From IMG/VR virus record IMGVR_UViG_3300027996_000021: a DNA stretch of 64,000 bases; one strand, given 5' to 3'. Positions 4,275-23,174 of the stretch are shown here, piece by piece. Made by a program: the position numbers and the translations under genes. This DNA comes from an uncultured virus (IMG/VR IMGVR_UViG_3300027996_000021). Its lineage: Duplodnaviria > Heunggongvirae > Uroviricota > Caudoviricetes. The notes under the pieces were generated by a model. That model searched no databases. It worked only from the letters and a program-made list of their open reading frames with translations, and had not been told where the DNA came from. The number at the start of each line of letters is the position of its first letter. The stretch's first letter is position 1.

Positions 4275-6184
4275 TGCCATTCACAAAGTATACAAATTTA
4301 GACTTTGATCAGATTAAGGATCAAATTAAAGACTATTTGAGAGCAAATTCGGACTTTACTGACTTTGATTTTGAAGGATCAAACTTTTCTGTCCTAATTG
4401 ATACTCTTGCATATAATACTTACATCACTGCCTTCAATACAAACATGGCGGTGAACGAATCTTTCATAGATTCCGCGACTTTAAGAGAGAATGTCGTCTC
4501 ACTTGCGCGAAATATTGGATATGTTCCGCGTTCTAAAACTTCATCCAAGGCAAAAGTATCGTTTCAGGTAAAATTTAACGGAGAAAGTTCAACAGTTACG
4601 CTAAAAGCGGGATTAGTTTGCGTAGGAACGACAAAAAATAGTAGTTTTGTATTCTCAATACCAGAAGATATTACTGCAGTTGCAACTCTTGACGACCCTA
4701 CAAACGGATTGATTGGTAATAGAACCGCTACATTCAGTAATATTGACATTTATCAGGGATCTTACGCAACTAAGAAGTTTAATGTCGATACTTCGTTGGA
4801 TCAAAGATTTATCATTGAAAATTCCTTTGTTGATACCGCAACATTAATTGTAAAAGTAAAAGGCCCTGGTGATACGGGATCTGGAAACGAATATATTAAA
4901 GCTGAAGGACTTGTTAATGTAAATGCCAACTCTGAAATTTATTTTGTTCAGGAAGTGAAAGATGAAAAATATGAACTTCTATTTGGTGATGGAATTTTAG
5001 GCAAAAAATTAGAGACTGGTGGTCAAATTATATCATCATATATCATTACTGATGGTATTGAGGGTAATGACGTAACTAACTTTAGTTTTTCTGGTGTATT
5101 AAGAGGATCTACGGATCAAACAATTTCCCCAATCGGATCTATCACTGTTACAACCAATTCTAAGGCACAGGGAGGCACCGAGATTGAGTCTTTACAGTCC
5201 GTTAAGTACTTTGCACCCAAAACATATTCATCGCAGTACAGGGCGGTTACGGCTAGTGATTACGAGTCCATAGTTAAGTTAATATATCCAGATGCAGAAT
5301 CAGTTTCTGTTGTTGGTGGTGAAGAGTTAGATCCCCCAAGATTTGGTGAAGTTCAGATCAGCATCAAACCGAAGAATGATTATTTCATATCAGACTTTAA
5401 CAAACAATCTATTTTAAATCGCCTGAAGAGTTACTCTCTAGCTGGCATCAAACAAACAATTGTAGACATTGAAGTTCTTTCAATTGAACTTGATACTTTT
5501 ATCTATTATAACAGCAGTAAAGTATCAAGTGTTAATGAACTAAAATCTAATGTTTCTTCAACACTCTCAGCTTTTTCAGAGTCTGAAGATCTGAATAATT
5601 TTGGTGGTAGATTTAAGTATAGTAAATTGCTCAAAATTATTGATGATACAAGTTCATCTATTACATCAAACATAACAAAGGTGAGGATTAGAAGGGATAT
5701 GAAGTCCCAACTGAATCGACCAGCACAATATGAACTATGCTTTGGTAACAAGTTTCATATAACACCATCAGGAAAAAATATTAAATCTACAGGATTTAAT
5801 ATTAGTGGAATTTCTGGAAAAGTTTATATGACAGATACTCCAAATGATGATATGAAAACTGGTATTATTTCATTCATTCAAATTGATACAAATGGTAATC
5901 CAGTTACAGTGGTCCAAAATGCTGGAATTGTTGATTATATTATTGGTGAAGTGAAACTCTTCACAATTAACGTTACTAATACAGATCTGCCATCTGGAAT
6001 AGTAGAAGTTCAGGCCTTCCCAGAAAGTAATGATGTCATTGGGTTGACAAACCTTTTCGTGGAATTATCCATCGCCAAAAGCACCATAAATATGTTGAAG
6101 GACACTATTAGTTCTGGTGAGCAGGTTTCGGGAATCGGATTCCCAGTCACTTCAAGTTATTCAAACGGAAATCTAACTAGGTAA
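4274..6184 (+). CDS. gp6: baseplate wedge subunit gp6
   Basis: Start MPFTKYTNLDFDQIK at 4274; DFDFEGSN, LAYNT, SATLRENVVSLA and RAVTASDY motifs. Confidence 0.93.
   Translation: MPFTKYTNLDFDQIKDQIKDYLRANSDFTDFDFEGSNFSVLIDTLAYNTYITAFNTNMAVNESFIDSATLRENVVSLARNIGYVPRSKTSSKAKVSFQVKFNGESSTVTLKAGLVCVGTTKNSSFVFSIPEDITAVATLDDPTNGLIGNRTATFSNIDIYQGSYATKKFNVDTSLDQRFIIENSFVDTATLIVKVKGPGDTGSGNEYIKAEGLVNVNANSEIYFVQEVKDEKYELLFGDGILGKKLETGGQIISSYIITDGIEGNDVTNFSFSGVLRGSTDQTISPIGSITVTTNSKAQGGTEIESLQSVKYFAPKTYSSQYRAVTASDYESIVKLIYPDAESVSVVGGEELDPPRFGEVQISIKPKNDYFISDFNKQSILNRLKSYSLAGIKQTIVDIEVLSIELDTFIYYNSSKVSSVNELKSNVSSTLSAFSESEDLNNFGGRFKYSKLLKIIDDTSSSITSNITKVRIRRDMKSQLNRPAQYELCFGNKFHITPSGKNIKSTGFNISGISGKVYMTDTPNDDMKTGIISFIQIDTNGNPVTVVQNAGIVDYIIGEVKLFTINVTNTDLPSGIVEVQAFPESNDVIGLTNLFVELSIAKSTINMLKDTISSGEQVSGIGFPVTSSYSNGNLTR
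6086..6092 (+). promoter_or_regulatory. late promoter ATAAATA within the gp6 3' end
   Basis: About 95 nt upstream of gp7. Confidence 0.5.
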
Positions 6185-6185
6185 A

Positions 6186-9100
6186 ATGATAGAGCCAGGA
6201 ATTGATAAGAGAGTAAAAGTAAGTCAAATCATTCAGGGTCAATTGCCATCTTATGTGGCAATTGAAAATCCAAAGTCTATAGATTTTTTAAAGCAGTATT
6301 ATCTTTCACAAGATTCTCAGGGACTCCCTGCAGATATCATTGATAATCTGGATCAATATTTAAAGTTTGATAGTTTGACACCAGAAGTTGTTAGTGGAAC
6401 AACTACTCTAACTGCAGATGTATCTGACGATGATTCTATATTTAATGTAGAATCTACAAAGGGATATCCAAACACTAATGGATTATTTAAAGTTGGTGAT
6501 GAAATCATCTACTATACTGGAAGCACCTCAAATTCTTTTACTGGATGTGTTCGTGGATTTAGTGGCATAACTGATTATTCTTCGGGTGAAGTTGTATTCA
6601 ATAAAACATCAGCTGAATCCCATAGCTCTGGGGATACTGTATCCAACCTTAATGTCCTTTTCCTTAGAGAATTTTTTAAGAGTTTAAAGGTTCTTTTTGC
6701 TCCTGGATTTGAAGACGAAAGTTTTAATTCTGATCTAAACGTAAATAATTTTGTAAAAAACCTAAGATCATTCTATCAGTCTAAAGGAACTAATGAGTCC
6801 TTTAACATTTTAATGTCATGCCTATTTGGCGAAAATGCAACTGTTAGAAATAATTCAGAGTCTTTATTTTCTTCATCAGAGTCTGAATTTAGAAGAAGAT
6901 TATTCCTAGTTGCCGAAAAAGTTTCTGGAGGAGATCCACTTTTACTATCTGGTCAGACATTATCCCAAGATAATAATTCAAATAGTTTAGTCATAAATGG
7001 AGCTTCTGCACCAATTTCTGAGGTTGAATATACTAATAGAGATGGAAAAGATTATTACAATATCTACCTATTCCAAAAATACTTAGATCCTTCTCCTGGA
7101 TTTGAGGGTGAATTTTCAATCACACCATCTACTAGATGTATTGGTGAAGTTTCAATTGGTGATAATGTAATTTCTGTAGACACCACCATTGGATTCCCTA
7201 AAAGTGGATTGTTGGTATCTGGAAATAATGTTATTACGTATACAGATAAAACTATTAACCAGTTTTTAAATTGTTCTGGTATTGAAAGGACTATTCTATC
7301 TGGTGATGATGTTAGGACAAATGATGTAATTTATGGATACACAAGAGGTGATAATGAAAAGGTAGAACTTCGTTTGACAGGAACGATTTCAAACTTTGAG
7401 CCAATTGCTGGTGAGAGGATTGCCAATACAAATTTGGGTGATGATTTTAGAACAAAATCAATTGGTAGAAAAATTATAAATCCAGATGAAAATAAGACGG
7501 TAATCGAAAATACTTTCAATTCATGGAAATATAATACAGCATCCAGAATACAAATCAGTAGTTTTGCTGGATCAGTTTTTGTATTGGGTATTGATATTGA
7601 TAAAGCATATCTTCGCAATGGTGATGTTGTTGAAGTTGTGCAGAGGGGTACAAATATTGTTCCAGTAAGTGAAGCCACAGTATCAATAACTGGTGATAAT
7701 GAAGTAGTTCTATCTGGAACTGGTATTAGTGATCTTAATACTGGCATCAGTTATGATATTAGAAGAAAACTTAAAAAAGCAAGTAGTTCTGGAATTGAAC
7801 TTCAATATGGTAATGATAAAATTACTTCAAATATTCTGAATACGTATATTACTAAGGATAGTAGTGAAATATTTGTAGCATCAAATTCACTTCCAGATTA
7901 TGAGATAAGTCTCGATACAATTAAAAGAACAATACCAGTAGCTTCTGTTGATTCTGGATCTATTCAGGATTTAAACAGTTATGGAACTTATAATATTCTA
8001 TCCTTTTCAGATACTGTTCCATTCATAACTGGAGATGAAATTGTTTACATCGCAGGGACAGCAGAAACTCCAATAAGTGGTCTTGAATTTGGTAGAAATT
8101 ATTTCGTCGAAGTTTTAAGTCCTGCAAATAAGATTAGATTATACGTTGCAAGATCATTCATTCAAGTATCCCAAAATATCAAAATAAATGAACCCATAGA
8201 TGAGGATACTGGAAGTCATAGTTTTATCGCTGCTTCACAATACAATAAAAAGATAAGAGGACAAAAATTACTCAAAAAATTTAGCCTAGAAAGATCATTT
8301 GACACTGGTAGTGAAATTAATACAATTCCCGGCCCAACGGGAATGTTAATTAATGGTGTCGAAGTTGTTAATTATAAAGTCGAAGATAAAATTTATTATG
8401 GTCCACTAGAAGAAATCACTCTTTTCAATGGTGGGGGTGGTTATGATGTTGTAAATCCACCAAAACTTAATATTACTGGTTCCAGTTCAACAACTGGAAC
8501 TAATGCTATAACTAACCTAGCGGTTACTGGTGTACTAAAAGACGTTTTAATTGATCCACAAGATTTCAATATTAATAAGATCAATAGTATTTCTATTGTT
8601 GGTGGAAATGGAACTGGTGCTGAAGTTGAACCAATTGTTATTGATTATTTCAGACAAGTTGGTTTTAATGGAAAATATACTGAATCTGGTGGTGGAGTTT
8701 CCATTTATGAAGACACAATTGAAACTATTAACAATCACAATTTTAAAGATGGTGAACCAATAGTCTATAGTTCAAATGGAAACCCATCAATTCCAATTAC
8801 TGGATTTGGACAAACTACCCTTACGGGCAATTTCTTAGAGACTGGTGGTGTTTACTATGCTGAAGTTATAGATTCACTTACCTTTAGGTTATATGAAACT
8901 GTTTCAGATTTCAATGGAGGAATCAATACTGTAGGATTCAGTACTGGATCAACTTCTGGTGGAAAACACATCTTTACATTACAAGAGTCCACCAAAAAAT
9001 TAACAGGAGTTAATGTACTAAATCCTGGATCTGGTTATTCAAATAGAGAAGTAGCTATTAAAACCACTGGAGTTTCAACGGTAACTAATTCTTTAGAATT

Positions 9101-12100
9101 TACATCTCATGGATACGAGACGGGTGAATTAGTAACGTATTCAACAACTGGAGATAATATTGTTGGATTGAATACGGATAATCAATATTTTATTATTAAG
9201 ATCAACAATAACAATTTCAGGTTATCAGATGCAGGCATAGGTGGAACAGATACTTCAGATTTTAATAGGAGACTTGTTCAAAAGTTCTCTGGTATTGGTA
9301 CGGGACTACATGTTTTCAATTACCAACCAATTGAAGTTGAGATTAATGCTTCAATTGCGAATACTGTTGGTGTTATAACTGGAACTCCAATTGTAACTGG
9401 TGAAATAGTAGATGTTTTATTATATGAAAAAGGTACTGATTATGGTTCCAAAATATTGAATTTTGAAAAGAGGCCAGGGATCAATGTTTTAAATGGCAAT
9501 GATGTAGAGTTTCAACCACTTATCATTGATGGACAAATAATTGATATTTTAGTTACACGATTTGGAGAAAATTATTTTTCACCACCAGATATAATCATTA
9601 CTAGCGAATCTGGTTTTGGTGCAGTAGGAAGAGCTGTTATTAATGATGTTGGAAATGTTATTGATGCTATAGTACTGAATTCTGGATCAAAATATGATGC
9701 TGGAGATACTTTTATTACTGGAGTATCTAGAGGATCAAATGCAACTTTTAATAGCAAAGTTAGAGGCCTATCATTAAATAATAGATCTAGATTCCCAGAA
9801 TATAATGGAGAAACTGTTTTTGATAAGGGTGAAAATGAATTACAATATGGTGTCATTGGTTATAATCAAAATCTAAAAAATAGTTTTGAAGATACCAATG
9901 AAAATGCACATTCTCCTTTAATTGGATATGCATATGACGGAAACCCAATTTATGGATCATATGGATATACAGATGCAAACAATTCAACATCTTTAATCAA
10001 AGAAATAAAATCTGGTTATGAGTTGGATGTCAGTCAGGTTGTAAACAGACCTTCAGGATTCCCAGCCGGTATCTTTGTTGAAGACTATTCATTTAAAGGA
10101 ACTGGTGATCTTGATGATCACAATGGAAGATTTTCAAAAACTCCCGAATATCCAAATGGAGTTTATGCATATTATGCCACAATTGAGAATGATCCAGGAA
10201 CTGGCGATATTATATCAAGTTTTCCATACTTTGTTGGTAATACTTATAGATCAACATTAGTAAGAGAAAATATTGCAGGATCTGAGGTTGAAATTAATCA
10301 AGATTTTGATTTTAATAACAATGGACTAATAAGAAATACATTCCCATATAATGTATCTGAATTATTTGCCAATTATGACTTCTTCACCCAACCATATCAG
10401 ACAGAATTACAAAGAGTCATAGTTAAATCCAAATTCAATGGTGGTATTGATAATATTGGTATTGTTAGTTTTGGATCGGACTACAAAGTTGGTGACAATA
10501 TTGTTTTTGATGATGAAGGAACTGGTGGTGGAGCATCTGCAGAGGTTCTTGAACTGATCGGAAAAGATGTTGAAAGTATTACTAAAGAAGTTTTATCTTA
10601 CGAGAACTTTACTTTTGAGAGATTAAATGGCAATCAGGTTGTTGGATACATTTCAACATATCATGATCTAGAAGCTACAAACATCATTAACATAAGTGGT
10701 CTGTCAACTTTCGTGGCTGGATTGGGTGGAAATAAAACTATTGGTGTTCCTGCAGATGATTTTAAAATGTTGACCAATATGCCAGCAGAGGCAGTTGGTG
10801 GCATGGCCACAGATATTCCAGTCGCTCCCATTCCAGAGTTCCTAAGACCGAATACTGATATTTTGATTGGCGATGAAACTCTAACTATACTGAATGTATT
10901 TGATTCCAAAAATGTTTTTGATAATTTTAGAGGAGTTGTAAGAGCAGTAAGAGGAATTTCTGGAAGTGGACATACCGTTGGAACTGCTATTACATCCAAA
11001 GCAAATAGAATTATATTTAATTATTCTGGAGAAAATTTAAATTCTAAAGCTGATACTGTATACTATTTCAATCCAACTGAAGTCATTGGATTTGGCACAG
11101 AAGTTGGAGTTTCTACAGTAAGAGATTATGAACTTCTTGGAGTAACTACGACTAGAGATATTCCAACTCAATCAATTTATATCCAAGACCACATTTTCAA
11201 AAATAACCAAAAAGTTGATTTTGTAAAGACATCTTCTGGAAATCCAGTATCTGTTTCCACAGTAAGTGCTGGATCAACATTTAACTTACCAGACTCTGGT
11301 GACATCCAAACTGTTTATATTACCAATAAGAGTAAAAATAACATTGGCATCAAAACAACGTTAGATTCCGATGAACTATTCTTTAGTAATTGTGACTCGG
11401 AAAGTTATGAATATTACATAACCAGTATTAATAATAAAATTACTGGAAATATTGATAGACTGACCGCAAGAGTTTCAACTGCATCATCTCATGGATTGCA
11501 AGTTGGAGATTCTGTAAACTTTACACTAAAATCAGATCTTTCTGTTGGAATCGGAACTTCAACATCTGTAAAAGTTTTATTTGAAGATTTCATTCAAAAT
11601 ATTACTGTAGATCCAATCGGATTCACTTCAACTTCTGTTGGCCTCACAAGTTCAAGGATTCTTGTTAATAGTCATGGTTTAGTTACTGGTGATCTAATTT
11701 TCTATGATGCGGATGAGTTACCTGCAGGAATTGAAACTGGAAAATATTTTGTATTTTCTGGAGATCCAGATAGTTTCTCTCTAGCTGAAACAAAGAGTGA
11801 TATTACTGGAGACACTTTAAATCTTATTGAATTTACTTCTGTGGGCGGAACCTCACATACAATATCTAAGGTAAATCCACAAATTCCTGTTATAAAAAAT
11901 AACGATTTGGTATTTGATGTTTCGGATTCATCTTTATCTGGATATAATTTTAAAATTTATTATGATCAAGAATATAGAAATAGAATTGTAGGAACTGGGC
12001 AATCAACTGTTTTTGAAGTTGAAACGGATGGAGCAATTGGAATTGGAACAACAACAGCAACAATAACAGTAAAATTCAATGAATACCTACCAAATCAACT

Positions 12101-15100
12101 TTATTATAATGTAGAAGAATTATCAACAGATACTCTAATCGAACCAGATTCTTCAGTTGATAACTATTCAAGAATACTATTCTCCGATAGTTCTTATACT
12201 AATAAATCTGCATCTGTTGTTGGAGTAGCTTCAACTTCATTCTTAGTAAATCTAAGAGAAGAACCCAAAAAGGATTCATATACATTATCTGAGTGTGACG
12301 TAATTTCATATACCACTAGATCTACAACAACTTCTGGCGGAATTGCAAAATCAAGGATTATATCAAAAGGAAGTGATTATAACATAACTCCAGGAATTTC
12401 CACAATAACAACTGAATCTGGAAGTAATGCTGAACTATTTGCAATTTCCAAAGAAATTGGAATTTTGGGCGCAACTGAAGTTCAAAAATCTGGATTTGAT
12501 TTTTCTGTTGATAAGACACTTAAGCCAATTGCAGATATTCCAACATATTATGAATTGAAAAGAAATAAAACTCTTGATACTGTAAAACCATCATTTGGCG
12601 GGAAAAATTATCTCTCTGTCCCAAATTTGACTCTTGTTGAATCTACAACGGGTAAACAAATTGATAATGCATCTTTGATTTGTAGCATCGATTCTGGATC
12701 AATCAATAAAGTTGATATTGTATCTCCAGGATTTGGACTAGCAGGTGTTGCTCATACTGTATATGCATTAACTGGTGATAATGGCCTGAGCATTATTACT
12801 GCAGATAGTGTTAATACAGGAATTGTCACGTTTACTGTTGTTACTCCAATTCTCGGATTTAGTACAAACCCATTACGTGCTGGTGATGAAGTATTTGTCG
12901 ATGGTATTGATGAGTACTCTAGCGATGGCCTCGGATTTAATTCAAAAGATTATAAATTCAATTTCTTTAAAGTTACCAGTTTTAATGGTGGTATTGTTCC
13001 ATCAACTGTAACTATAGATCTATCTGGAATTTCAACAAATCCTGGAATTGCAGTAACTACTGTAAACTTTGGTACTATTATTAAGAGAGAAAATTATCCA
13101 ATATTTAATGTGACTTTAAAGAGTGCGACGTTTATTGATAATGAATCTCTAATTGTTGTGAAGGGCAACAATAATGTCAAAACAAACCTAACAGTAGTTT
13201 ATTCAGATGATCTGAGATTAAGAACATTTGGTGATTACAAACTTGTAATTGGTGATGTGATTATCGGTGAAGTTTCTGGAACAAGAGCAACGGTAGAAAC
13301 TATTGATAGGTATGATGGACTATATGAAGTTAATTTTGGATCAACTATAAGATATGGTTGGACCGATAATAGAGGATTTTTAAATGATGATTCTCAGGTT
13401 GTTCCTGATAACAATTATTATCAGAAAATGGCTTACTCTATTAAGAGTCCAATTGAATTTGATGAACTTATCGATCCAGTAAACAGATTAGCTCATATTT
13501 CTGGAACGAAGAATTTTGCGGATACGCAAATTCAAACGGTTGCTGTTGCTGCTACAAATTTTGTGGATGCTGGAGCATCTACATTAGTTATTGATATTTT
13601 TGCTGATGCTGATGTCACAACCATTAATAATTTTGACTTTGCTGTAGATACTGATATTATTAACTCACCATCAGCCATTACAAACAGTATCAAATTTGGT
13701 AATAAAAAACTAACAAACTATATCGAATGTAAGACAAATAGAGTTCTTACAATTGATGATATTAGCTCAGAATTTATTGATTTTGAAAATACTGTTGGAA
13801 ACTTTAAAGATATTATTTCATACTCTGCTGGAACTGGAGTAAGTAGATTTATCATTATTGTAAGAGATGTTGTTGATAGAACTTCATATGAAGTTCATGA
13901 AATTGTTGTTCTTGTTGATGGTGAACCAAATACATTTATTTTACAAAAGAACAGAATAAAGGCAAACCCACAAGTCCCAGTAATTGATCCAGAGGCAGAA
14001 ATAACATCACTTGGTGAGATTGACTCTTTATATGATGATGTATCTGCAACTGTAAAAATAAGATTCACACCATCTAATCCACTTAAAACATATGATATCA
14101 AGGCTTTCCGTCAAGTATTTGACTCAAGAACAAGTGGTATTGGATCAGTAACTATTGGAGATACTGTTATATTTGGTTCCACAAACACAGTTGGAGTTGG
14201 TACAACAACATCTATTGTTGATCTTGGAATTGGTGATTTTAATTCAGCATTTGCATATGTTGAAATAACAAATCAAATAAACTCTGAAAGAGATTATGCT
14301 GAGGTAACAATTTTACATGATGGGGTAAATGCTTACATTGGTGAATTTGGATTCAATACTTCAGATAGATTACTATCATTCAATCCAATTGGTACATTTG
14401 GTGCTACTCTTGTATCCGATGTTCTCAATTTAAATTATACAAATAATTCATCAAATAGCACTTTAGTCAAAGCAAGCATAGTTGGATTTAAAACAACTAA
14501 TGTTGGATTGAGATCTGAATTCTTTAAACTAGAGACACAAGAAGGTGGATCTGAGAGAACTGCCAGACTAGAATCCAATGTAATTGAAGAAGTTGCAGCT
14601 GGATATGGCATCACTGTTGTTGGAATTTCAACACTGAACGATAGACTTGCAAAGTCTGTTATTAGAGTTTCATCTGGAAACACACAATCTTTGAGTCAAG
14701 TAATGTTTACTCAGGATTTCGGTTCTATTGAAACATTTGTTGTTGAATACCCACAACTTGGAATTAATACTGCTATTGGATTTGGTACATTTAGTTCTGA
14801 ATATAGTGGCCAGTTTGCAAATCTGGTGTTTATTCCAGATAGCAAATTTACTGGCGATACAATTAGAATTGAGGAATTCAGTGAAATTGTTTATATCGAC
14901 CAAGACACTAATATCACTTCAATTCCAGATTTTGGATTTGGTACTGTAATCGAAAATGTTTTTCAATCAAGATATACACCAAATGCAAAATTAGATTTTG
15001 AATTGGAGCATGAAGGATTCCAAATTTATGCCAGAAGATTCAACCCACAAAACTCTACTGTCTTCGACCAAACTACTGGAAATATCTTTATTGAAAGTCA

Positions 15101-18100
15101 TTTCTTACAAGATGGTCAGGATATTGTTTATGAGTCTGGATCAACAATTTCTGGTATCACATCTGAAGCAATTGGAATTGGAACAACAATTGCTGGTGGT
15201 ACTGAAGTAACAGGTGATATTTTTACCAATAGTAAAGTTGTTTCTTCTGCGAGCACAGATCAGGGTCTCAATATTGACGATGAATTCTTTGGTCCAGGTA
15301 TTGGAGATGGAGCAACAATTGTTAGTGTTGGGTCAACATTTAGATTCTTTGTTGGCAACTCTGATGGCACAAATGTCATTACTTCAATTGCAAATACATC
15401 GGTTCTTGCCATTGGGGATACAATCGTAGAAGAATTGACTCAAACTGGATTCGGCACAATTACTTCAATTGGAATCAATTCAATCGTAGTTGACAATAAT
15501 GTCCCCGTTGGAGTTGGCAGTACATATTATTCTGAAAGACTCGGAATTGGTATTTCTTTATCTGTAGTATCTACAGCTAATACCACCAGTCAAGTTTGCT
15601 TCTCTGGAGTTACAACTGACATTCTTCCATCAAATCTATTTGCCATTAGAATTGATAACAATAACATCAAATTGGCAACCAAGAAAGATTTTGCTCTCAG
15701 AGGAGTTGGAATTGAACCAACATCAACTGGATCTGGAAATGATCACCTGATCGATACAACGAAAAAACTTGAAAAATCCTTAATCATTCTTGATGGTGTT
15801 GTTCAGGCTCCAATTTCTAGAACACTCGTCGAGTATGATATTCAAGTTGATGCTGGTATCGGAAGAACATTCCTCCCTCTAACTGGAATTTCAACTCTAG
15901 TTCCAGATTATATTTTGAAAGTCGATGATGAGTTGATGAATATCCAAAACGTTGGTTTGGGAACATCTTCATCTGGCCCAATTAGTGGTGTTGGTACATT
16001 TAATCTAGTAAATGTCGAAAGAGGATTTGTTGGTACTGAAGAAGTTACTCATACTGATGGAACTAGAGCAATTGTACATAGAGGTGCATATAACATTGTA
16101 GAAAGCAAAGTCCATTTTGTTGATGCTCCCAAGGGTGCTGGTGGAGATTTTATTCTTGATGATAGAGGTCTAGAATTTTTAAGATCTGATTTTAGTGGAA
16201 GAGTTTATCTAAAACAAGACTATACAACGAATGAAATTTATGATGATATTTCCCCATCATTTACTGGCATTGCAAAGACTTTTGGATTAACTGTTGGTGG
16301 AAATTATCCAGTTGGATTGGATACAGGAAGTGGAAGTGGTGTTCTATTCATTAATGGAATACATCAAGGCCAAACAACAGATAATAACCCAAGTAATGTT
16401 TATGAATTAAATCCTAGCGACACTACTGTTGATGTAGAATTTAGTGGAACTAAGTTAATTAGTGGTGATCCATACTTAAGTGAGTTGGATGCTATTAAAA
16501 ACCAACTACCAGTGGGTGGTAGAATCGTCTCTATTGCATCTTCTGGCGGAACTGGCATCGCACCCCTAGTTGGTGCCAAAGTCATCGCTGAGGTTGGTAC
16601 AGGTGGCAGTATTACGAATATTCTTGGTGCAGACACTGTTGGAACATATACAACAATTACCGATTTTGTTTATGATGGTGTATCTGGAATCGCAACAGTA
16701 ACCACTGCAGTTGCTCACGGACTTGTATCTTCTGACTTCGTTTCACTGAGAGATATTGAATTTGATTGTACAAGTGGATATGACAGTCTGGTTGGTGTTT
16801 CTACACTAGATTATGATAATGTATCAGGTATTATGACTGTCACGACGAAAACAGATCACTTCCTGAACAAAGATATGGAAGTTAAGTTCAGAGATCTCAA
16901 GTTTGAGTGTGCTAAAGGATTTGACAATCTACTTGGAGTTTCTACTGCTAGTTACGATCATCTCTCTGGAATCATTACTGTAACTACAAGCTCTGCACAT
17001 GACCTGAATAGAAATATGAAGGTCAAGTTCCACGACCTGAAGTTTGAATGTACTAAAGAATTCTTACCTACGGTTGGAATCTACACAGCAGATTATGATA
17101 ATGTTTCTGGTATTATCACTGTTTCCACAATCGGTGATCACAAACTAAACAGAAACATGAAGGTCAAGTTCTATGATCTTGAAATGGAGTGTCAGAAGGG
17201 ATTTGACACCCAGTTGGGAATCTCCAGTACTGAGTATGATCATGTTTCTGGTATCCTAACTGTCACTACAAGCACGAATCATCTTCTCAATAAAGGAATG
17301 TCCTTGAGATTGGCTGATCTTGAATTTGCATGTACAGAAGAACATGCTGGTGTCACTACAACTATTTTCCCCGATGGCACAAATGGTAGAATCTTCAATA
17401 CCGTAGAGTCTGCTCTAAGCGCCACTCAGTTCACTACTCAGGTCGGTATAACGACTATTCCACATATTCCAATTGGTGGTGGAACAGTTGAAACTGGAAT
17501 CACAACAACTAAGTTCCCAAGCAAAGCTGGAATTCAATATGGAATTACTGGATTTGATTATACCGAGTCTACTGGTGTTGGTACAATTACCGTCAACAGA
17601 AACCACAACATAACTATTGGAGAAACAGTTGATATTAGAAACATTGAGTTTACATGTGCCGTAGAGCACGCTGGCGTTACTACAACAACATTCCCTGATG
17701 GCACTCAAGGATTTGAATATGAAGTTCTATCAGTTCCCTCTGCAACTGAACTAAAAGTCAACGTTGGTATTTCCACAATTGCACATACTTATGATAGTGG
17801 TGGTTTTGTCTCTGGTGTTAAGTATCTTGAGGGATACACAGTCACAAATGTAGGATCTGGTACAGAGTTTACGGCTCAGATAGACACTGTTGGATTTGCT
17901 CACACATATGTAAGTGGTGGTCTTGTTCAGTCTGGTGTTACTACTAATGTCTTCCCAAGTTCTGAAGGTAAGCAGTTTGCAATTGTCAACTTTGAATATA
18001 CTGAGAACAGTGGATCAAGCATAATCACACTATCTGGAAATCATGAAATTTCAGTTGGTACAGATGTCAAACTAGAAGATATTGAATTTATATGTTCTTC

Positions 18101-21100
18101 AGAACATGCTGGTGTAACAACAACTATCTTCCCTGATGGTACTCAAGGAGATACCTTTAAGGTAACTGGTGTTGGCGCTTCTACAATTAATATCAACGTT
18201 GGCATCTCAACTATCGCCCATACCTATTCCGCACATGGTATCCTATCTGAAGTTCAATATGATGAAGGATTCAATGTAACCAAGGTCAACTCCACTACTG
18301 AGTTTGAAGCTCAGATTCCAACTGTTGGATTTGCTCACACATACATTGCTCATAGTGGTGGAAACGTTGAAACTGGTATTACGACTAACGTATTCCCAAG
18401 TGATCTTGGAATTGAATGGGCAATTTCTGGATTCGATTATACTGAAGCAACTGGTGTCAGCACAATCGCAACCAGAAAGACTCACAATATTACTACTGGT
18501 GAGTTTGTAAGACTCAAGGATATTGAATTTACATGTTCCTCAGAACACTCTGGAGTAACTACAACTATCTTCCCAGACACAATTATTGATGAGTTTGAAG
18601 TTCTAGATGTTCCTTCTGGAACTGAGATTAAGATTAACGTTGGTCCTTCCACAATTGCACATACTTATTCAGCTAATGGTGTTGCCCAAGGTGTCAAATT
18701 TGTTGGTGGTTATAAAGTTGGAAACGTAATCGACTCTAAGAACTTCTCAGTAAATGCTCTACCAGTTGGATTTGCACATACTTATGTTGCTCATAGTGGA
18801 GGTGTTGTTGAGACTGGATTCACGACCACTAGATTCCCAGACAATAGAGGTATTCCTTTCGCAATCTCTAATTTTGAATATGATAAGACAACTGGTTTCT
18901 CAACTATTACTACTAAGAAAAATTACAGTGGTCTTGCCATTGGAGATGTAATTAATCTCTCTGGAATTGCAATGACTTGTCTTGCATATGGTAATGAGAT
19001 TGCTATCTATGACTTTGATTACACTGCATCAACTGGCGTTAGTACAATCCTAACAGCAGATAATCATGGTTTAAGTGATGGTGATTTGGTAATGCTTCGC
19101 GATATTGAATTCTCATGTGCAGCTCCTCATGCAGGCGTGACAACAACTATATTCCCAGATGGAACTCAAGGTTTCTACTTTAATGTTAATGCTGGAAGTT
19201 CTGGAACATCAATCGTTACAAACGTAGGTATTTCTACAATTGCTCACGATTATGTTTCTGGAACTGGTAAGGTTAGAATTGGCATCACAACTTCAATTTT
19301 CCCAGATGGAACTCAAGGATCTGAATTCAAAATCTTTGGTCTTCCTGCTCCTAATCAAATTATCACTAATGTAGGAGTTTCTACAATTGATCATATCTAT
19401 GATGATCATGGAATTGTACATGGAATCAAGACAGTTGGTCCATATGAAATTGAAACAATTAAGACGGATACTGAGTTTGAAGTTGATGTATTTAAGGTTG
19501 GTTTTGCCCATACCTTTGTTCCAAATAGAAGAAAGGGTGCAACTGTTGCCGAAGCTGCCAAATTCAATTATCTAACATTTGGTTCTGGTTATTTCAACGC
19601 AGCAACAGTTGTAGTTGAAGAGGATGGTCATTCTGGATCAGCTGCAACAATTATAACAACAGTTGGTGCAGGAGGATCTCTATCATTTACCATTGAAGAT
19701 GGTGGAACTGGATACACAGATCCAACCATTCAGGTATCCATCCCATCATATGCAAATCTTCCAATTGAAGGTATTAGCAGACTTGGTATTGGTGCTACTA
19801 CAGATACTGGAAAAGGAGTTACAGTATCACTAAGTGTCGGCCCCGCTGGAACGACTGGAATTGGAACAACTACTTTTGCAGTTAAAGGATTCACACTCAA
19901 TAATCCAGGATTTGCATTCCTAAGAGGTGATTTGTTTAGACCAGTTGGTCTAGTAACTGCTGTAGGAGTTGGAACAAATTATAGTGAATTTACTTTAGAG
20001 GTTCTCAATGTTCTAAACGATACATTCTCATCATGGAACTTTGGACAAATTGATTATATTGACTCAATCAGGAGTCTACAGGATGGCCAAAGAACAAGAT
20101 TCCCACTCAAGCTAAATGGAAATAGTTTAAGTTTCCAGAGAGATATTACAGACCAACAATCTGTAGAAATTGATTTGGACGCTGTTCTACTAATCTTTGT
20201 TAATGGCGTTGTTCAGGTGCCCAAGAAAGATTACTTCTTTGAAGGTGGTACAAGTTTCAACTTCAACTTTACATCTCCACCAAGAGTTGAGGATGATATT
20301 TCCCTCTACTTCTATAGAGGTACAAGAGGAACTGATAGTGCTCTAGTGACTGTATATGAAACAGTCAAACCAGGAGACAGAGTACAAATGCTCAGATCTA
20401 TTTCTGGTGATGTTCAATCTCAAGATACGAGAACCATTTTCTCAATTATTGATTCTACTGATATTGAAACGAATGTTTATCGTCAGCAGGGAATTGATGG
20501 AGATAAATTCCGTCCTCTCAACTTTACAAGACAAAAGAAAGATGTAATTATTTCTGAGCAGGTTCAATACAAGGTGAGAGATTCTTTGGAAGCACAAATT
20601 ATGCCTGTGGGCAAAGTTATTGGTAATTTTGGTTCTTCAGATACTGAAATTTTCTTAGATGATGCAAAATTCTTCCAATATGAAGAAGATGCTGATGGAT
20701 CCAACTTTGGAGAAATTGTTTGTGATGCACTTATTGTTGATTATAATGATCCAGTAGCAGCTGCAGTTACTGCAGGAGTTTCTGTAGCAGGTACGATCAC
20801 ATCTCTCACAATCAATGATGGTGGATCTGGATATCCTGATGGTGATGTTTCAATTAGAATTGCAAATCCACCAAAGGTTGATAATGCAAAATATGGAATT
20901 GTTGGTGTTGGTACTACTGCTATTGCAACAGCATCTGCCTCTGGAGGAATTCTAACTTCTGTTACAATTACAAATCCAGGATTTGGATATACAAATACAA
21001 ACTTACCCCTAGTTATTGTTGCAACCGCTGCACCTGTAACTGAAACAATTATAGATGCACCTATTATTCTTGGATACTCTGGTATCATCACTGGTATTGG

Positions 21101-21584
21101 AACTACAACAGGAGTTGGTGGTCATCCATTGGCCCTTAAATTCCAAGTTGATTTGAGCAATTCTGGTCAAGTATCATTGTTCCCAACTCTTTTACCTGGT
21201 TATCCAATTGTTGTTAAAGATACCGTAACTGGAACTGGAGTGACTTCTGTAGATTCTTCGGACTCAGAAATTGTTGGAATTGGATCCACTAATGTTGACA
21301 ATATTTACATTATCCAAGAGTACTTCATTGAAGGAACCACTGGTATTATCACATGTAATATTAAGTCCGATACTGATACTATTGGAATAATAACCACAAC
21401 AGGTGATGATATTGGTCAATTCTCTTGGGGCAAATTAAGTGATTTCACTAGAGGTGTGTCTCCAATTACTCTAACAGTTGAGGGTAATACTTTTGATGTT
21501 GGCCTAACAACCTATCCATCAATTACTAGAAGAGGTGTTGGTTTGAGAAACACTGGAAATATTAATAAGCAAGTTTCATCATAA
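6186..21584 (+). CDS. gp7: giant baseplate wedge initiator gp7-like structural protein (5132 aa)
   Basis: Lies between gp6 and gp8; FLKQYY, FYQSKGT and DNNYYQKMAYSIKS...AHISG motifs of cyanophage gp7; G/T/S/V-rich beta repeats. Confidence 0.85.
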   Translation: MIEPGIDKRVKVSQIIQGQLPSYVAIENPKSIDFLKQYYLSQDSQGLPADIIDNLDQYLKFDSLTPEVVSGTTTLTADVSDDDSIFNVESTKGYPNTNGLFKVGDEIIYYTGSTSNSFTGCVRGFSGITDYSSGEVVFNKTSAESHSSGDTVSNLNVLFLREFFKSLKVLFAPGFEDESFNSDLNVNNFVKNLRSFYQSKGTNESFNILMSCLFGENATVRNNSESLFSSSESEFRRRLFLVAEKVSGGDPLLLSGQTLSQDNNSNSLVINGASAPISEVEYTNRDGKDYYNIYLFQKYLDPSPGFEGEFSITPSTRCIGEVSIGDNVISVDTTIGFPKSGLLVSGNNVITYTDKTINQFLNCSGIERTILSGDDVRTNDVIYGYTRGDNEKVELRLTGTISNFEPIAGERIANTNLGDDFRTKSIGRKIINPDENKTVIENTFNSWKYNTASRIQISSFAGSVFVLGIDIDKAYLRNGDVVEVVQRGTNIVPVSEATVSITGDNEVVLSGTGISDLNTGISYDIRRKLKKASSSGIELQYGNDKITSNILNTYITKDSSEIFVASNSLPDYEISLDTIKRTIPVASVDSGSIQDLNSYGTYNILSFSDTVPFITGDEIVYIAGTAETPISGLEFGRNYFVEVLSPANKIRLYVARSFIQVSQNIKINEPIDEDTGSHSFIAASQYNKKIRGQKLLKKFSLERSFDTGSEINTIPGPTGMLINGVEVVNYKVEDKIYYGPLEEITLFNGGGGYDVVNPPKLNITGSSSTTGTNAITNLAVTGVLKDVLIDPQDFNINKINSISIVGGNGTGAEVEPIVIDYFRQVGFNGKYTESGGGVSIYEDTIETINNHNFKDGEPIVYSSNGNPSIPITGFGQTTLTGNFLETGGVYYAEVIDSLTFRLYETVSDFNGGINTVGFSTGSTSGGKHIFTLQESTKKLTGVNVLNPGSGYSNREVAIKTTGVSTVTNSLEFTSHGYETGELVTYSTTGDNIVGLNTDNQYFIIKINNNNFRLSDAGIGGTDTSDFNRRLVQKFSGIGTGLHVFNYQPIEVEINASIANTVGVITGTPIVTGEIVDVLLYEKGTDYGSKILNFEKRPGINVLNGNDVEFQPLIIDGQIIDILVTRFGENYFSPPDIIITSESGFGAVGRAVINDVGNVIDAIVLNSGSKYDAGDTFITGVSRGSNATFNSKVRGLSLNNRSRFPEYNGETVFDKGENELQYGVIGYNQNLKNSFEDTNENAHSPLIGYAYDGNPIYGSYGYTDANNSTSLIKEIKSGYELDVSQVVNRPSGFPAGIFVEDYSFKGTGDLDDHNGRFSKTPEYPNGVYAYYATIENDPGTGDIISSFPYFVGNTYRSTLVRENIAGSEVEINQDFDFNNNGLIRNTFPYNVSELFANYDFFTQPYQTELQRVIVKSKFNGGIDNIGIVSFGSDYKVGDNIVFDDEGTGGGASAEVLELIGKDVESITKEVLSYENFTFERLNGNQVVGYISTYHDLEATNIINISGLSTFVAGLGGNKTIGVPADDFKMLTNMPAEAVGGMATDIPVAPIPEFLRPNTDILIGDETLTILNVFDSKNVFDNFRGVVRAVRGISGSGHTVGTAITSKANRIIFNYSGENLNSKADTVYYFNPTEVIGFGTEVGVSTVRDYELLGVTTTRDIPTQSIYIQDHIFKNNQKVDFVKTSSGNPVSVSTVSAGSTFNLPDSGDIQTVYITNKSKNNIGIKTTLDSDELFFSNCDSESYEYYITSINNKITGNIDRLTARVSTASSHGLQVGDSVNFTLKSDLSVGIGTSTSVKVLFEDFIQNITVDPIGFTSTSVGLTSSRILVNSHGLVTGDLIFYDADELPAGIETGKYFVFSGDPDSFSLAETKSDITGDTLNLIEFTSVGGTSHTISKVNPQIPVIKNNDLVFDVSDSSLSGYNFKIYYDQEYRNRIVGTGQSTVFEVETDGAIGIGTTTATITVKFNEYLPNQLYYNVEELSTDTLIEPDSSVDNYSRILFSDSSYTNKSASVVGVASTSFLVNLREEPKKDSYTLSECDVISYTTRSTTTSGGIAKSRIISKGSDYNITPGISTITTESGSNAELFAISKEIGILGATEVQKSGFDFSVDKTLKPIADIPTYYELKRNKTLDTVKPSFGGKNYLSVPNLTLVESTTGKQIDNASLICSIDSGSINKVDIVSPGFGLAGVAHTVYALTGDNGLSIITADSVNTGIVTFTVVTPILGFSTNPLRAGDEVFVDGIDEYSSDGLGFNSKDYKFNFFKVTSFNGGIVPSTVTIDLSGISTNPGIAVTTVNFGTIIKRENYPIFNVTLKSATFIDNESLIVVKGNNNVKTNLTVVYSDDLRLRTFGDYKLVIGDVIIGEVSGTRATVETIDRYDGLYEVNFGSTIRYGWTDNRGFLNDDSQVVPDNNYYQKMAYSIKSPIEFDELIDPVNRLAHISGTKNFADTQIQTVAVAATNFVDAGASTLVIDIFADADVTTINNFDFAVDTDIINSPSAITNSIKFGNKKLTNYIECKTNRVLTIDDISSEFIDFENTVGNFKDIISYSAGTGVSRFIIIVRDVVDRTSYEVHEIVVLVDGEPNTFILQKNRIKANPQVPVIDPEAEITSLGEIDSLYDDVSATVKIRFTPSNPLKTYDIKAFRQVFDSRTSGIGSVTIGDTVIFGSTNTVGVGTTTSIVDLGIGDFNSAFAYVEITNQINSERDYAEVTILHDGVNAYIGEFGFNTSDRLLSFNPIGTFGATLVSDVLNLNYTNNSSNSTLVKASIVGFKTTNVGLRSEFFKLETQEGGSERTARLESNVIEEVAAGYGITVVGISTLNDRLAKSVIRVSSGNTQSLSQVMFTQDFGSIETFVVEYPQLGINTAIGFGTFSSEYSGQFANLVFIPDSKFTGDTIRIEEFSEIVYIDQDTNITSIPDFGFGTVIENVFQSRYTPNAKLDFELEHEGFQIYARRFNPQNSTVFDQTTGNIFIESHFLQDGQDIVYESGSTISGITSEAIGIGTTIAGGTEVTGDIFTNSKVVSSASTDQGLNIDDEFFGPGIGDGATIVSVGSTFRFFVGNSDGTNVITSIANTSVLAIGDTIVEELTQTGFGTITSIGINSIVVDNNVPVGVGSTYYSERLGIGISLSVVSTANTTSQVCFSGVTTDILPSNLFAIRIDNNNIKLATKKDFALRGVGIEPTSTGSGNDHLIDTTKKLEKSLIILDGVVQAPISRTLVEYDIQVDAGIGRTFLPLTGISTLVPDYILKVDDELMNIQNVGLGTSSSGPISGVGTFNLVNVERGFVGTEEVTHTDGTRAIVHRGAYNIVESKVHFVDAPKGAGGDFILDDRGLEFLRSDFSGRVYLKQDYTTNEIYDDISPSFTGIAKTFGLTVGGNYPVGLDTGSGSGVLFINGIHQGQTTDNNPSNVYELNPSDTTVDVEFSGTKLISGDPYLSELDAIKNQLPVGGRIVSIASSGGTGIAPLVGAKVIAEVGTGGSITNILGADTVGTYTTITDFVYDGVSGIATVTTAVAHGLVSSDFVSLRDIEFDCTSGYDSLVGVSTLDYDNVSGIMTVTTKTDHFLNKDMEVKFRDLKFECAKGFDNLLGVSTASYDHLSGIITVTTSSAHDLNRNMKVKFHDLKFECTKEFLPTVGIYTADYDNVSGIITVSTIGDHKLNRNMKVKFYDLEMECQKGFDTQLGISSTEYDHVSGILTVTTSTNHLLNKGMSLRLADLEFACTEEHAGVTTTIFPDGTNGRIFNTVESALSATQFTTQVGITTIPHIPIGGGTVETGITTTKFPSKAGIQYGITGFDYTESTGVGTITVNRNHNITIGETVDIRNIEFTCAVEHAGVTTTTFPDGTQGFEYEVLSVPSATELKVNVGISTIAHTYDSGGFVSGVKYLEGYTVTNVGSGTEFTAQIDTVGFAHTYVSGGLVQSGVTTNVFPSSEGKQFAIVNFEYTENSGSSIITLSGNHEISVGTDVKLEDIEFICSSEHAGVTTTIFPDGTQGDTFKVTGVGASTININVGISTIAHTYSAHGILSEVQYDEGFNVTKVNSTTEFEAQIPTVGFAHTYIAHSGGNVETGITTNVFPSDLGIEWAISGFDYTEATGVSTIATRKTHNITTGEFVRLKDIEFTCSSEHSGVTTTIFPDTIIDEFEVLDVPSGTEIKINVGPSTIAHTYSANGVAQGVKFVGGYKVGNVIDSKNFSVNALPVGFAHTYVAHSGGVVETGFTTTRFPDNRGIPFAISNFEYDKTTGFSTITTKKNYSGLAIGDVINLSGIAMTCLAYGNEIAIYDFDYTASTGVSTILTADNHGLSDGDLVMLRDIEFSCAAPHAGVTTTIFPDGTQGFYFNVNAGSSGTSIVTNVGISTIAHDYVSGTGKVRIGITTSIFPDGTQGSEFKIFGLPAPNQIITNVGVSTIDHIYDDHGIVHGIKTVGPYEIETIKTDTEFEVDVFKVGFAHTFVPNRRKGATVAEAAKFNYLTFGSGYFNAATVVVEEDGHSGSAATIITTVGAGGSLSFTIEDGGTGYTDPTIQVSIPSYANLPIEGISRLGIGATTDTGKGVTVSLSVGPAGTTGIGTTTFAVKGFTLNNPGFAFLRGDLFRPVGLVTAVGVGTNYSEFTLEVLNVLNDTFSSWNFGQIDYIDSIRSLQDGQRTRFPLKLNGNSLSFQRDITDQQSVEIDLDAVLLIFVNGVVQVPKKDYFFEGGTSFNFNFTSPPRVEDDISLYFYRGTRGTDSALVTVYETVKPGDRVQMLRSISGDVQSQDTRTIFSIIDSTDIETNVYRQQGIDGDKFRPLNFTRQKKDVIISEQVQYKVRDSLEAQIMPVGKVIGNFGSSDTEIFLDDAKFFQYEEDADGSNFGEIVCDALIVDYNDPVAAAVTAGVSVAGTITSLTINDGGSGYPDGDVSIRIANPPKVDNAKYGIVGVGTTAIATASASGGILTSVTITNPGFGYTNTNLPLVIVATAAPVTETIIDAPIILGYSGIITGIGTTTGVGGHPLALKFQVDLSNSGQVSLFPTLLPGYPIVVKDTVTGTGVTSVDSSDSEIVGIGSTNVDNIYIIQEYFIEGTTGIITCNIKSDTDTIGIITTTGDDIGQFSWGKLSDFTRGVSPITLTVEGNTFDVGLTTYPSITRRGVGLRNTGNINKQVSS
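16653..19545 (+). repeat. ten nested copies of a ~95-aa domain within gp7; the first five N-halves recur every 141 bp
   Basis: Cys codons at 16767, 16908, 17049, 17190, 17331, 17655, 18093, 18534, 18978 and 19116; recurring TTT-x-FP and H-T-Y motifs. Confidence 0.9.
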
Positions 21585-21611: not shown

Positions 21612-23174
21612 ATGGCGGCTATTGTAACGGACCAATTTAGGATACTGAATGTTAATAATTTTATTAACTCTGTAGAAAGTATTGAAAATTCATATTATGT
21701 TTTTACGTCCTTACCAAATCCAACTTTATCGGTTGGGTTTGGTAGAACGTCTGATTGGAATACAAACACATCTGGTCCACCAGCACCAATTGACAATTTT
21801 AATTATAGTAATCATGTCTATGATACTATGCTGTTCGGTAAGAAAATTACCCCAGCAAATATTCGTAGAGTTATAAGAAGAGTTGACTGGGAGCAGGGTA
21901 ATGTTTATGAACAATATCGCCATGATTATAGTACAAATAACTTATCTCCAATAACAGGATCAACCAGGTTGTATGATTCAAGATATTATGTAATGAACTC
22001 TGAATTTAGAGTTTATATTTGTATTGAAAATGGAGCAACCCCATCAAATCCAGCAGGAAATGCATCACAAGACGAACCAACATTCACAGATTTAGAACCA
22101 AATAGAGCTGGTGAAAGTGGTGATGGTTATATTTGGAAGTATCTTTTCACTATCTCACCATCAGACATCATTAAATTTGATTCTACTGAATATATTACCT
22201 TACCAGCAAATTGGATCACTTCAACTGATCCACAAATTGAAGCTGTTCGCAATAATGGTGATTCCGAAATCAATAGTAATCAAATCAAGACCATCTCCGT
22301 CAAAAAGGATGGATTTGGATATGGTCTTGGATTAAATGTTGAACTTGATATTTTGGGGGATGGTACTGGAGGAAAGGTAGTTGTTTCCACAGATAGTAGT
22401 GGAAGAATTACAAGCGCACAGGTTTCTTCTGGTGGTAAAGGATATAGTTACGGTATTGTTGATTTAGGCCCAGTTCAAAGTGGTAGTCTAACAGAATTTG
22501 CCGAGTTGATCCCAATCATTCCACCATCAAGAGGTCATGGTTATGATTTGTATAAAGAATTGGGAGCTGAGAAAGTTCTAGTCTACTCACGTTTTGATGA
22601 CTCCTCAAGAAATTTCCCAACTGATACTCAATTTGCACAGGTTGGTATTGTAAAAAATCCAACCTCATTTGGTTCTACGGCAGTCTTTAGTGCAAATAAC
22701 TATTCTGCAATGGGACAAATTAAGGTTACTAGTCCAAGTGGAAGTTTGGTTGTTGGTGATACCATTAAGCAAGTTGTTGGTACAACAACCGCTGTTGGAT
22801 ATGTAGCCTCTTTTGATGAGGAGACTAATGTGATCAAGTATATTCAAGATCGTTCATTGTACTTTAACAAGGCGACAGGAACACAGAGAGATTTTATTGG
22901 CGTCACATCAGAATCCAAATATGTTGATTTTGACTCAAGTGTTGAGTCTGTTACAACTGATGGTGGATTCTCTGCTTCTGTCGATACAAACTTCTCTGGA
23001 ATTACAACTGTTATTGGCAACAATACAATCAATCTCGGAGTGAACTTTACCGATGGACTTTCTAAGTCTCAGATAAATAAGAGGTCGGGAGAAATAATCT
23101 ATATTGATAATAGACCCACTATAGCGCGAAATTCTCGTCAAAAAGAAGACATCAAAGTAGTACTGGAATTCTGA
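21612..23174 (+). CDS. gp8: baseplate wedge subunit gp8
   Basis: YYVMNSEFRVYICIENG, DGYIWKYLFTI and C-terminal YIDNR...RQKEDIKVVLEF. Confidence 0.92.
   Translation: MAAIVTDQFRILNVNNFINSVESIENSYYVFTSLPNPTLSVGFGRTSDWNTNTSGPPAPIDNFNYSNHVYDTMLFGKKITPANIRRVIRRVDWEQGNVYEQYRHDYSTNNLSPITGSTRLYDSRYYVMNSEFRVYICIENGATPSNPAGNASQDEPTFTDLEPNRAGESGDGYIWKYLFTISPSDIIKFDSTEYITLPANWITSTDPQIEAVRNNGDSEINSNQIKTISVKKDGFGYGLGLNVELDILGDGTGGKVVVSTDSSGRITSAQVSSGGKGYSYGIVDLGPVQSGSLTEFAELIPIIPPSRGHGYDLYKELGAEKVLVYSRFDDSSRNFPTDTQFAQVGIVKNPTSFGSTAVFSANNYSAMGQIKVTSPSGSLVVGDTIKQVVGTTTAVGYVASFDEETNVIKYIQDRSLYFNKATGTQRDFIGVTSESKYVDFDSSVESVTTDGGFSASVDTNFSGITTVIGNNTINLGVNFTDGLSKSQINKRSGEIIYIDNRPTIARNSRQKEDIKVVLEF

Follow-up and report, generated by a model that had tools for sequence, protein, structure and literature searches.

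A predicted branched array of ten self-inserted β-barrel domains in the giant gp7-position protein of an uncultured T4-like cyanomyovirus

Insertion of one domain into another is common. In the excerpted text of a 2026 survey of 2.7 million classified domains, single-level insertions dominate, and the extreme is an eight-domain, six-level recursive insertion with bifurcating nodes, the Si3 of Prochlorococcus RpoC2 (PMC13114784). The crystal structure of the Thermosynechococcus Si3, as far as the excerpt of that source goes, contains eight sandwich-barrel hybrid motifs (SBHMs), among which SBHM-2 to -5 are assembled from distant stretches of the chain (PMC10895346). Recursive self-nesting is therefore already known as a kind, and in the literature we found, Si3 is the only documented case in which one domain recurses deeply into itself. 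The words phage and virus are absent from the survey text (PMC13114784). Here we describe a candidate array of this kind in a 64,000-nucleotide stretch of DNA from an uncultured virus (IMG/VR record IMGVR_UViG_3300027996_000021; this whole stretch is referred to as the window). Judged from its sequence, the region of residues 3493–4454 in a giant open reading frame (ORF) at the gp7 position quite probably consists of ten β-barrels of ~96 amino acids (aa), FCCH-like or coat-protein I-domain-like, which are inserted into one another in a branched manner. No description of nested barrels in cyanophage gp7 was found in the literature searched, with subscription journals largely outside that search.

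A preliminary description of the window had divided the region 16653–19545 into three kinds of parts, A, B and C, each said to occur exactly ten times and not in tandem. The region is in frame with the ORF at 6186–21584 and corresponds to residues 3490–4453. Over the entire giant translation of 5133 residues, ten matches each were found for the end of part A ([DNG][ILM][EKA][FM].C), for part B (G.TT[TNS].FP) and for part C (VG.[ST]T[IL].H or VGFAHT), and every one of them falls within residues 3523–4438. The mean number of matches in 1000 shuffled proteins was 0.0 for B and 0.01 for the A end. All ten A, all ten B and all ten C parts can be aligned with each other, as expected for one domain family. 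Uninterrupted copies, referred to as leaves, are 46–57% identical to each other. The repeat units are 50–70% identical in DNA, and no DNA-level tandem repeat was detected in the array region with Tandem Repeats Finder. The motif first proposed for part A needed correction in its details: the ten parts are real, but the spacing at their start is Y-x4-G and not Y-x3-G (the literal start pattern has no match), and the proposed end, V-x3-D-x-EF-x-C, fits literally in four of the ten parts and with conservative replacements in the other six.

Reading the window with these patterns and with hidden Markov models (HMMs) gave the part order AAAAABCBABCCBABCCBABCCBAABCBCC, exactly as first described. 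We applied a balance rule in which a domain is made up of A, B and C and in which whole domains are allowed after A and after B. Under this rule the word is balanced and has a single parse, D1(D2(D3(D4(D5/D6)/D7)/D8)/D9(D10/-)), where in X/Y the first domain occupies site 1, behind the Cys, and the second occupies site 2, behind FP. Of the 5.55e12 ways to arrange ten copies each of A, B and C, 1,430,715 are balanced, which corresponds to a chance of 2.6e-7. The bracket-like reading of the region is borne out. The pattern C...H[AS]GVTTT.FPD has five occurrences, which are the five leaf domains, while the four occurrences of VGFAHT are the four doubly interrupted domains; both assignments had been made beforehand. 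The Cys codons that end A1 to A5 were found exactly at the positions given earlier, 16767, 16908, 17049, 17190 and 17331 (residues 3528, 3575, 3622, 3669 and 3716), with a spacing of 47 aa or 141 bp. Such an exact period would also suit a different arrangement, in which the A parts are self-sufficient 47-aa β-hairpins repeated in tandem, B–C is a second kind of repeat, and a barrel forms only where the two are adjacent.

The Cys ending part A and the His of part C (..AH..) are present in all ten domains (C41 and H84 in leaf numbering). The His of part A (H24) is present in nine domains, D9 having a Tyr instead, and the His of C-x3-H (H45) is confined to the five leaves. This conserved Cys/His set may represent a metal site or another structural site which ties distant halves of the barrel together.

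Leaf D10 with three to five flanking residues (window 18996–19286, 97 aa) was folded with AlphaFold2 (AF2), with an alignment that brought together 63 uninterrupted copies, taken from the window, IMG/VR loci and six small database proteins. The model has a mean predicted local distance difference test score (pLDDT) of 92.8 and a predicted template modelling score (pTM) of 0.83, and all five models have a pLDDT of at least 87. It contains nine strands (residues 2–9, 15–20, 31–35, 37–45, 48–53, 61–64, 72–76, 84–86 and 92–94). Part A (residues 1–41, Cys-terminated) contributes strands 1–4, part B strand 5 and part C strands 6–9, and in the model the three parts together are one closed β-barrel domain, a result that speaks against A as a self-sufficient unit. 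The least confident stretch, residues 41–50 with a pLDDT of 76, is site 1.

Comparison of the D10 model with 48,161 representative chains using VIA-align returned single small barrels as top rows, each covering model residues 1–97. Because the best structural matches span the model in this way, part A by itself makes up under half of a closed barrel. The highest score was obtained for the FCCH domain of E1 (4p22_B 218–296; score 8.0, root-mean-square deviation 2.4, 77 aligned), followed by the phi92 endosialidase barrel (7.8), the mouse FCCH domain (2v31; 7.5) and a chain of the phage FCWL1 head-to-tail interface (7.5); FNR-type FAD barrels scored 5–7.6 and the Sf6 coat I-domain 6.1. As modelled, the unit is a six-stranded closed β-barrel superposable on a solved FCCH domain. 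Foldseek found nothing for the model in the PDB at E ≤ 0.001. In predicted viral structures from BFVD, 16 proteins matched the leaf model at E ≤ 0.001 with template modelling (TM) scores up to 0.91; those with a name come from Synechococcus phages and are labelled as endosialidase, long tail fiber, tail fiber-like, baseplate wedge initiator, tail or structural proteins.

Pfam E1_FCCH (PF16190) matched the A10 stretch only, and weakly, with 24.7 bits and an E value of 2.4e-5, below the gathering threshold of 29.5, and precomputed PF16190 matches exist in three of 120 listed homologues. Searches of PDB sequences with the array region and with the leaf profile gave chance-level rows only (HLA-DQ, E 0.3; Ask1, E 1.3). 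Run against 1.84 billion proteins, the leaf-domain profile matched 363 cluster representatives at E ≤ 0.001, and the family is therefore small. Unlike the unit described here, E1 FCCH domains (2v31, 4p22) have no demonstrable counterpart to the extra strand 4/5 hairpin, C-x3-H-x-GVTTT-x-FPD, and no self-nesting is known for them. The barrel of the phi92 and K1F endosialidases and the I-domain of the P22 and Sf6 coat proteins are each a single insertion in an unrelated host domain and not in one of their own kind. We take FCCH, the endosialidase barrel and the I-domain all to be insertions in their own proteins, and the endosialidase barrel presumably carries a sialic-acid site.

If the bracket parse is right, each A part has a definite C partner. 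For the five nested domains of the window, the identity matrices of the A parts and of the bracket-matched C parts correlate with r 0.92, the best of 120 pairings; for D1–D4 alone r is 0.79, the best of 24. That the similarity patterns of A and C mirror each other only under bracket pairing argues against independent A units. First-in-first-out pairing of A and C was rejected (r −0.06 for the five nested domains; reversed pairing gave −0.54 for D1–D4). In proteins with at least four interrupted domains, bracket pairing was better than in-order pairing in 32 of 41 cases, and in 17 of these 41 it ranked above 95% or more of the random pairings. We also calculated pair log-odds from the 20 most informative pairs of A and C columns, trained on 465 uninterrupted domains only (effective number 340). 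For interrupted domains these log-odds favour the bracket partner over the remaining interrupted C parts in the same protein, with z 6.0 and 6.5 for two groups, also when permuted within C-type classes (z 6.8, 0 of 2000 permutations at the observed value, 519 domains), with the reservation that the proteins in the permutation tests are mutually related and the pooled z values overstate the independent support.

The part grammar and the covariation are blind to whether partners pair within one chain or between identical chains. The A stack of one gp7 copy might be completed by a neighbouring copy, which would lend its B and C parts through domain swapping, and T4 baseplates do contain several copies of wedge proteins. 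Closure within the chain is favoured by the linkers at both insertion sites, which are just a few residues long, and by the likeness of the leaf fold to barrels that we assume to be inserted in their own proteins. The same word structure is moreover found in other protein contexts, e.g., in tail-fibre-like proteins. We consider completion between chains to have a very small chance of being correct.

The words of homologues were read with HMMs built from the window's parts only; iterated models were kept for A and C alone. Balanced words were found in 18 of the 120 listed homologues. There are six of them, with 3, 4, 5, 6, 10 and 12 domains: AABCBABCC, AABCBAABCBCC, AAABCBABCCBABCC, AAABCBABCCBAABCBCC, the window's own word and, for 12 domains, AAAAABCBABCCBAABCBCCBAABCBCCBAABCBCC. 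The word thus stays balanced as the copy number changes, as had been predicted. Unequal counts in homologues had been named beforehand as evidence against nesting, and where all three parts were detectable, i.e., in these 18 proteins, the counts were equal. Equal counts combined with balanced order across six words are not what independent A and B–C repeats would lead one to expect. With more sensitive merged models for A and C, 119 of 263 proteins were A/C-balanced, giving 41 words. In the loci and the window together, 71 of 102 frames with at least three matches were balanced, including 37 with a single ABC, eight with AABCBC, two with ABABCC and one with a tandem ABCABCABC, although many of the loci are the same contigs twice and these counts are not independent.

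The length of the proteins points the same way. Across the 18 gp7-like proteins with balanced words, array span equals 96.0 aa times the number of copies minus 3.8 (r 0.9999, n = 18), and the proteins grow by 94 aa per domain. A region length of 96 aa per A part in any arrangement is a further argument against 47-aa units that stand alone. On the nearest record (G001, a 46.8-kb fragment) a whole-domain profile gave five full-length matches, five matches to positions 1–40/41 only and one to positions 43–89 only, and no further copies of the domain were found on this fragment outside the same gene.

A natural insertion can be seen in one homologue, P0005, which has 12 domains and is 70% identical to the window over the array region. 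Alignment with the window shows 47+48 additional aa placed around the D7 hairpin, C-x3-H-x-G (window residues 3966–3976), and a second such insertion at the hairpin of D8 (window residues 4115–4125). Two leaves of the window are therefore hosts in a relative, exactly at the predicted site. Together with the leaf fold, the balance and the pairing statistics, this comparison supports the earlier proposals that A, B and C make up one domain and that domains 1–5 are nested through the loop after the Cys. The same indirect lines support the placement of domains 6–9 after TTT-x-FP and of domain 10 inside domain 9.

The same barrel also makes up almost the whole of a different cyanophage protein of ~4000 aa, which is encoded away from the gp7 position (L022:6693–18596, Synechococcus phage ACG-2014f_Syn7803C8 gp262, ‘hypothetical protein’; also P0006–P0030). 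Proteins of this type (S-CAM7 gp208/ACG-2014f gp262) open with a run of eight A parts and contain 30–33 A and 30–33 C parts, which are balanced and nested up to eight deep. They were used in the part counts and left out of the fold alignments.

Several results weigh against nesting. Under the window-derived HMMs, 102 of the 120 listed homologues are not ABC-balanced, and under the merged HMMs 144 of 263 proteins are not A/C-balanced. The iterated B model was too weak to help: it recovered six of the ten B parts of the window and left none of the 120 homologues ABC-balanced. An AF2 model of the whole 964-aa region, made from a 19-row alignment, had a mean pLDDT of 46.7 and a pTM of 0.22 and consisted of isolated hairpins, which is too poor to inform on the topology; the geometry of the stalk and any binding function are matters that we infer. 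The low-confidence model shows each A part as a separate hairpin, as independent units would require, and A parts outnumber C parts in 106 of 265 proteins (C excess in 32, equal in 127). Inspection of five unbalanced cases, a small number, showed an unmatched A followed by a diverged contiguous variant in all five; the excess A matches inspected thus precede diverged C parts. Unbalanced words stem at least in part from diverged parts that the HMMs do not see. In view of the leaf model, the balanced words, the length per A part and the pairing statistics, we regard self-sufficient A hairpins as improbable.

The diverged sister form follows the last A part in P0050, P0041, P0108, P0088 and P0113. 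In this F-x-C...YPR..DP... variant, ...YPR..DP... replaces part B, and the C part is without His and is missed by the C model. No trailing diverged copy is present in the window's own protein.

In the nested arrangement that we favour, a barrel would need all three parts, with strands 1–4 from A, strand 5 from B and strands 6–9 from C. Two places in the barrel would each be able to accept a whole domain: site 1 at the tip of the hairpin formed by strands 4 and 5, which reads C-x3-H-x-G where uninterrupted, and site 2 in the loop that follows TTT-x-FP and leads from strand 5 to strand 6. The chain would run outward through A1–A5, complete D5 and return by closing D4, D3, D2 and D1 successively. 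At each level of the return it would make a detour through a side domain, namely D6, D7, D8 and finally D9, which holds D10. If the chain is assumed to reverse at each connection, the strand order would put both termini of the barrel, where strand 1 begins and strand 9 ends, together with site 2 at one pole and site 1 at the opposite pole. Domains in site 1 would then stack end-on into a five-barrel rod, D1–D5, and those in site 2 would stick out next to the joint with the lower level, as the side knobs D6, D7, D8 and D9 with D10. We therefore infer a linear five-barrel stalk with side branches, in agreement with the picture given in the preliminary description. The parts are listed in Table 1.

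Table 1. Features of the predicted nested array (D1–D10) and of the genes around it. Part boundaries are from HMM envelopes and the bracket parse.
Feature	Window position	Strand	Remarks
Nested array	16662..19547	+	Ten FCCH-like β-barrel domains (predicted), aa 3493–4454
D1 part A	16662..16769	+	
D2 part A	16803..16910	+	
D3 part A	16944..17051	+	
D4 part A	17085..17192	+	
D5	17226..17492	+	Leaf, predicted stalk tip; A 17226–17333, B 17343–17381, C 17388–17492
D4 part B	17490..17528	+	
D6	17550..17813	+	Leaf, A/B/C contiguous; site 2 of D4
D4 part C	17832..17930	+	VGFAHT type
D3 part B	17928..17966	+	
D7	17988..18248	+	Leaf, site 2 of D3; hosts one further domain in P0005
D3 part C	18264..18371	+	VGFAHT type
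D2 part B	18369..18407	+	
D8	18429..18689	+	Leaf, site 2 of D2; hosts one further domain in P0005
D2 part C	18708..18812	+	VGFAHT type
D1 part B	18810..18848	+	
D9 part A	18870..18980	+	Side branch of D1; Tyr for conserved His
D10	19011..19277	+	Leaf in site 1 of D9; copy that was folded
D9 parts B and C	19275..19421	+	B 19275–19313, C 19317–19421
D1 part C	19440..19547	+	VGFAHT type, closes the array
Giant ORF, gp7-position baseplate wedge subunit	6186..21584	+	5132 aa; ORF list; phrog_2885; gp6-like and gp8-like neighbours
gp6-like wedge protein	4196..6184		PHROG/Pfam
gp8-like wedge protein	21612..23174		PHROG/Pfam

Growth of the array by repeated self-insertion, as first suggested, fits the comparison with P0005 but may not be the whole history. 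Parts A2–A4 are 60–64% identical to each other and 36–40% identical to A1, the three return units of 147 aa (B, side leaf and C) are 56–59% identical, and C3 and C4 are the closest pair among the C parts. These similarities point to duplication of whole levels. Insertion of whole domains, as seen in P0005, keeps the array foldable at each step, whereas a whole level can be duplicated only if the outgoing and the returning limb change in step. Two unequal crossovers followed by selection for balance are one possible route to it.

The structural module of a T4-like cyanomyovirus makes up the window; its genes were named from PHROG and Pfam scans. The PHROG family phrog_2885, ‘baseplate wedge subunit’, fits both halves of the giant ORF (E = 0 and 3e-303), which sits between the gp6-like and the gp8-like ORF, both with Pfam/PHROG matches. 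By its wedge-family match and this flanking position the giant ORF corresponds to a T4-type gp7. T4 gp7 has 1032 aa and shares with the giant ORF the place between gp6 and gp8 and the annotation as a wedge-subunit PHROG; the giant ORF is about five times as long. No sign of the array's domain in T4 gp7 was met, though no search was aimed at it. The scans also identified neck proteins, a sheath stabiliser, the large terminase, sheath, tube, portal, prohead protease, scaffold and major head protein. Relatives of the array region were found in 84 records of the named-phage collection, whose names mark them all as cyanophages (76 Synechococcus, 4 Marine, 2 Cyanophage, 2 Prochlorococcus). Among them the cultured Synechococcus phage S-T4 ranks best; its gp197, a 4749-aa gene, is annotated as baseplate wedge subunit and lies in the same gene order, and its array region has six domains in three levels. 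No proteome or structure of the window phage or of S-T4 was found in the literature searched.

Other parts of the giant ORF and its surroundings have features of their own. A YHYH domain (PF14240, E 2e-28) lies within the giant ORF at window positions 9873–10187 (residues 1230–1334), and nearly all gp7-like homologues have the same domain. In the N-terminal two thirds of the ORF (window 6186–16650) contiguous stretches with the part-A signature ‘H-G-x3-GD-x-V ... Y-x-V ... F-x-L’ can be seen by eye, e.g., around residues 860–1000 and 1950–2070. They are not matched by the part HMMs on the window protein and are probably uninterrupted small barrels of a related kind. A second giant ORF of 2456 aa directly after gp8 (window 23179–30549) matches phrog_358 (function unknown) and DUF4815, and S-T4 has a counterpart of it that carries the annotation ‘virulence-associated VriC protein’. 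The head closure (gp14-like) ORF at window 32152–33531 has a C-terminal extension (residues ~180–360) that matches phrog_701, 19630 and 5342, which are families of virion structural and tail fibre proteins. Genes of auxiliary type flank the structural module: a 2OG-Fe(II) oxygenase (2693–3238), a 730-aa peptidase (phrog_459; 55628–57820) and a member of a family annotated as porphyrin biosynthesis/ATPase (57899–58966).

The array probably serves as a rigid, length-adjustable appendage at the periphery of the baseplate, a reading based on the occurrence of the domain in proteins named as fibre or baseplate proteins and on the shifts in copy number between close relatives. Gain or loss of whole domains would then tune the array length and the number of exposed barrels from phage to phage. 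The exposed leaf barrels might bind glycans on the host surface, which we rate as well short of an even chance, and the multivalent receptor-binding tips of the preliminary description are speculation. The topology may also be nested as described while the module is a passive spacer or decoration that binds nothing. FCCH domains facing outward decorate the tail tubes of some siphoviruses according to the excerpted text of one source (PMC13576161), and the conserved residues of the window's domain are mostly core or turn positions. The enrichment of the domain in tail fibres, endosialidase and baseplate proteins as named by depositors is at odds with a passive role, as is the variable copy number between close relatives, which is common for host-contact parts; neither is a test. 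Overall we give the passive role only slightly less than an even chance.

A wider reading would make the cyanomyovirus FCCH-like barrel a self-inserting building block with two ports. Such a block could form tree-like appendages of one to more than 30 barrels, nested at most eight deep, on baseplate and fibre proteins; these would change domain by domain, and the A-Cys/C-His site would staple the halves of each barrel together. This generalisation is tentative, and we doubt that all of it will hold. If it is true, it would describe nature's largest and most regular example of recursion in protein architecture and a ready scaffold for multivalent display; should the exposed barrels bind the host, the array would act as a multivalent adhesin that can be tuned. 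The array accounts for part of the large size of cyanophage baseplate proteins. For annotation, ‘half-domain’ profile matches in such proteins would be genuine pieces of discontinuous domains and not fragments. The series of 3, 4, 5, 6, 10 and 12 copies in gp7-like proteins and of ~30 in the other protein is a natural test set for the folding of interrupted domains and for array growth.

The closest described system remains the Si3 of the cyanobacterial RNA polymerase β' subunit, in which one small β domain family is likewise recursively inserted into itself. The folds are unrelated, the sandwich-barrel hybrid motif in Si3 and an FCCH-like closed barrel in the window. Si3 belongs to a cellular enzyme, whereas the array of the window is in a predicted virion protein, assigned to the baseplate by family match and gene position. 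The nesting of Si3 has been solved by crystal structure and that of the window is predicted from the lines of evidence given above. Compared with Si3, the window array uses two fixed insertion sites and a regular three-part grammar, and its scale is larger, with 10 copies here and ~30 in the related cyanophage protein. The copy number of the family ranges from one to ~33 and differs between close relatives. What is new here is a predicted larger, branched form of self-nesting in a different fold and in a putative virion protein.

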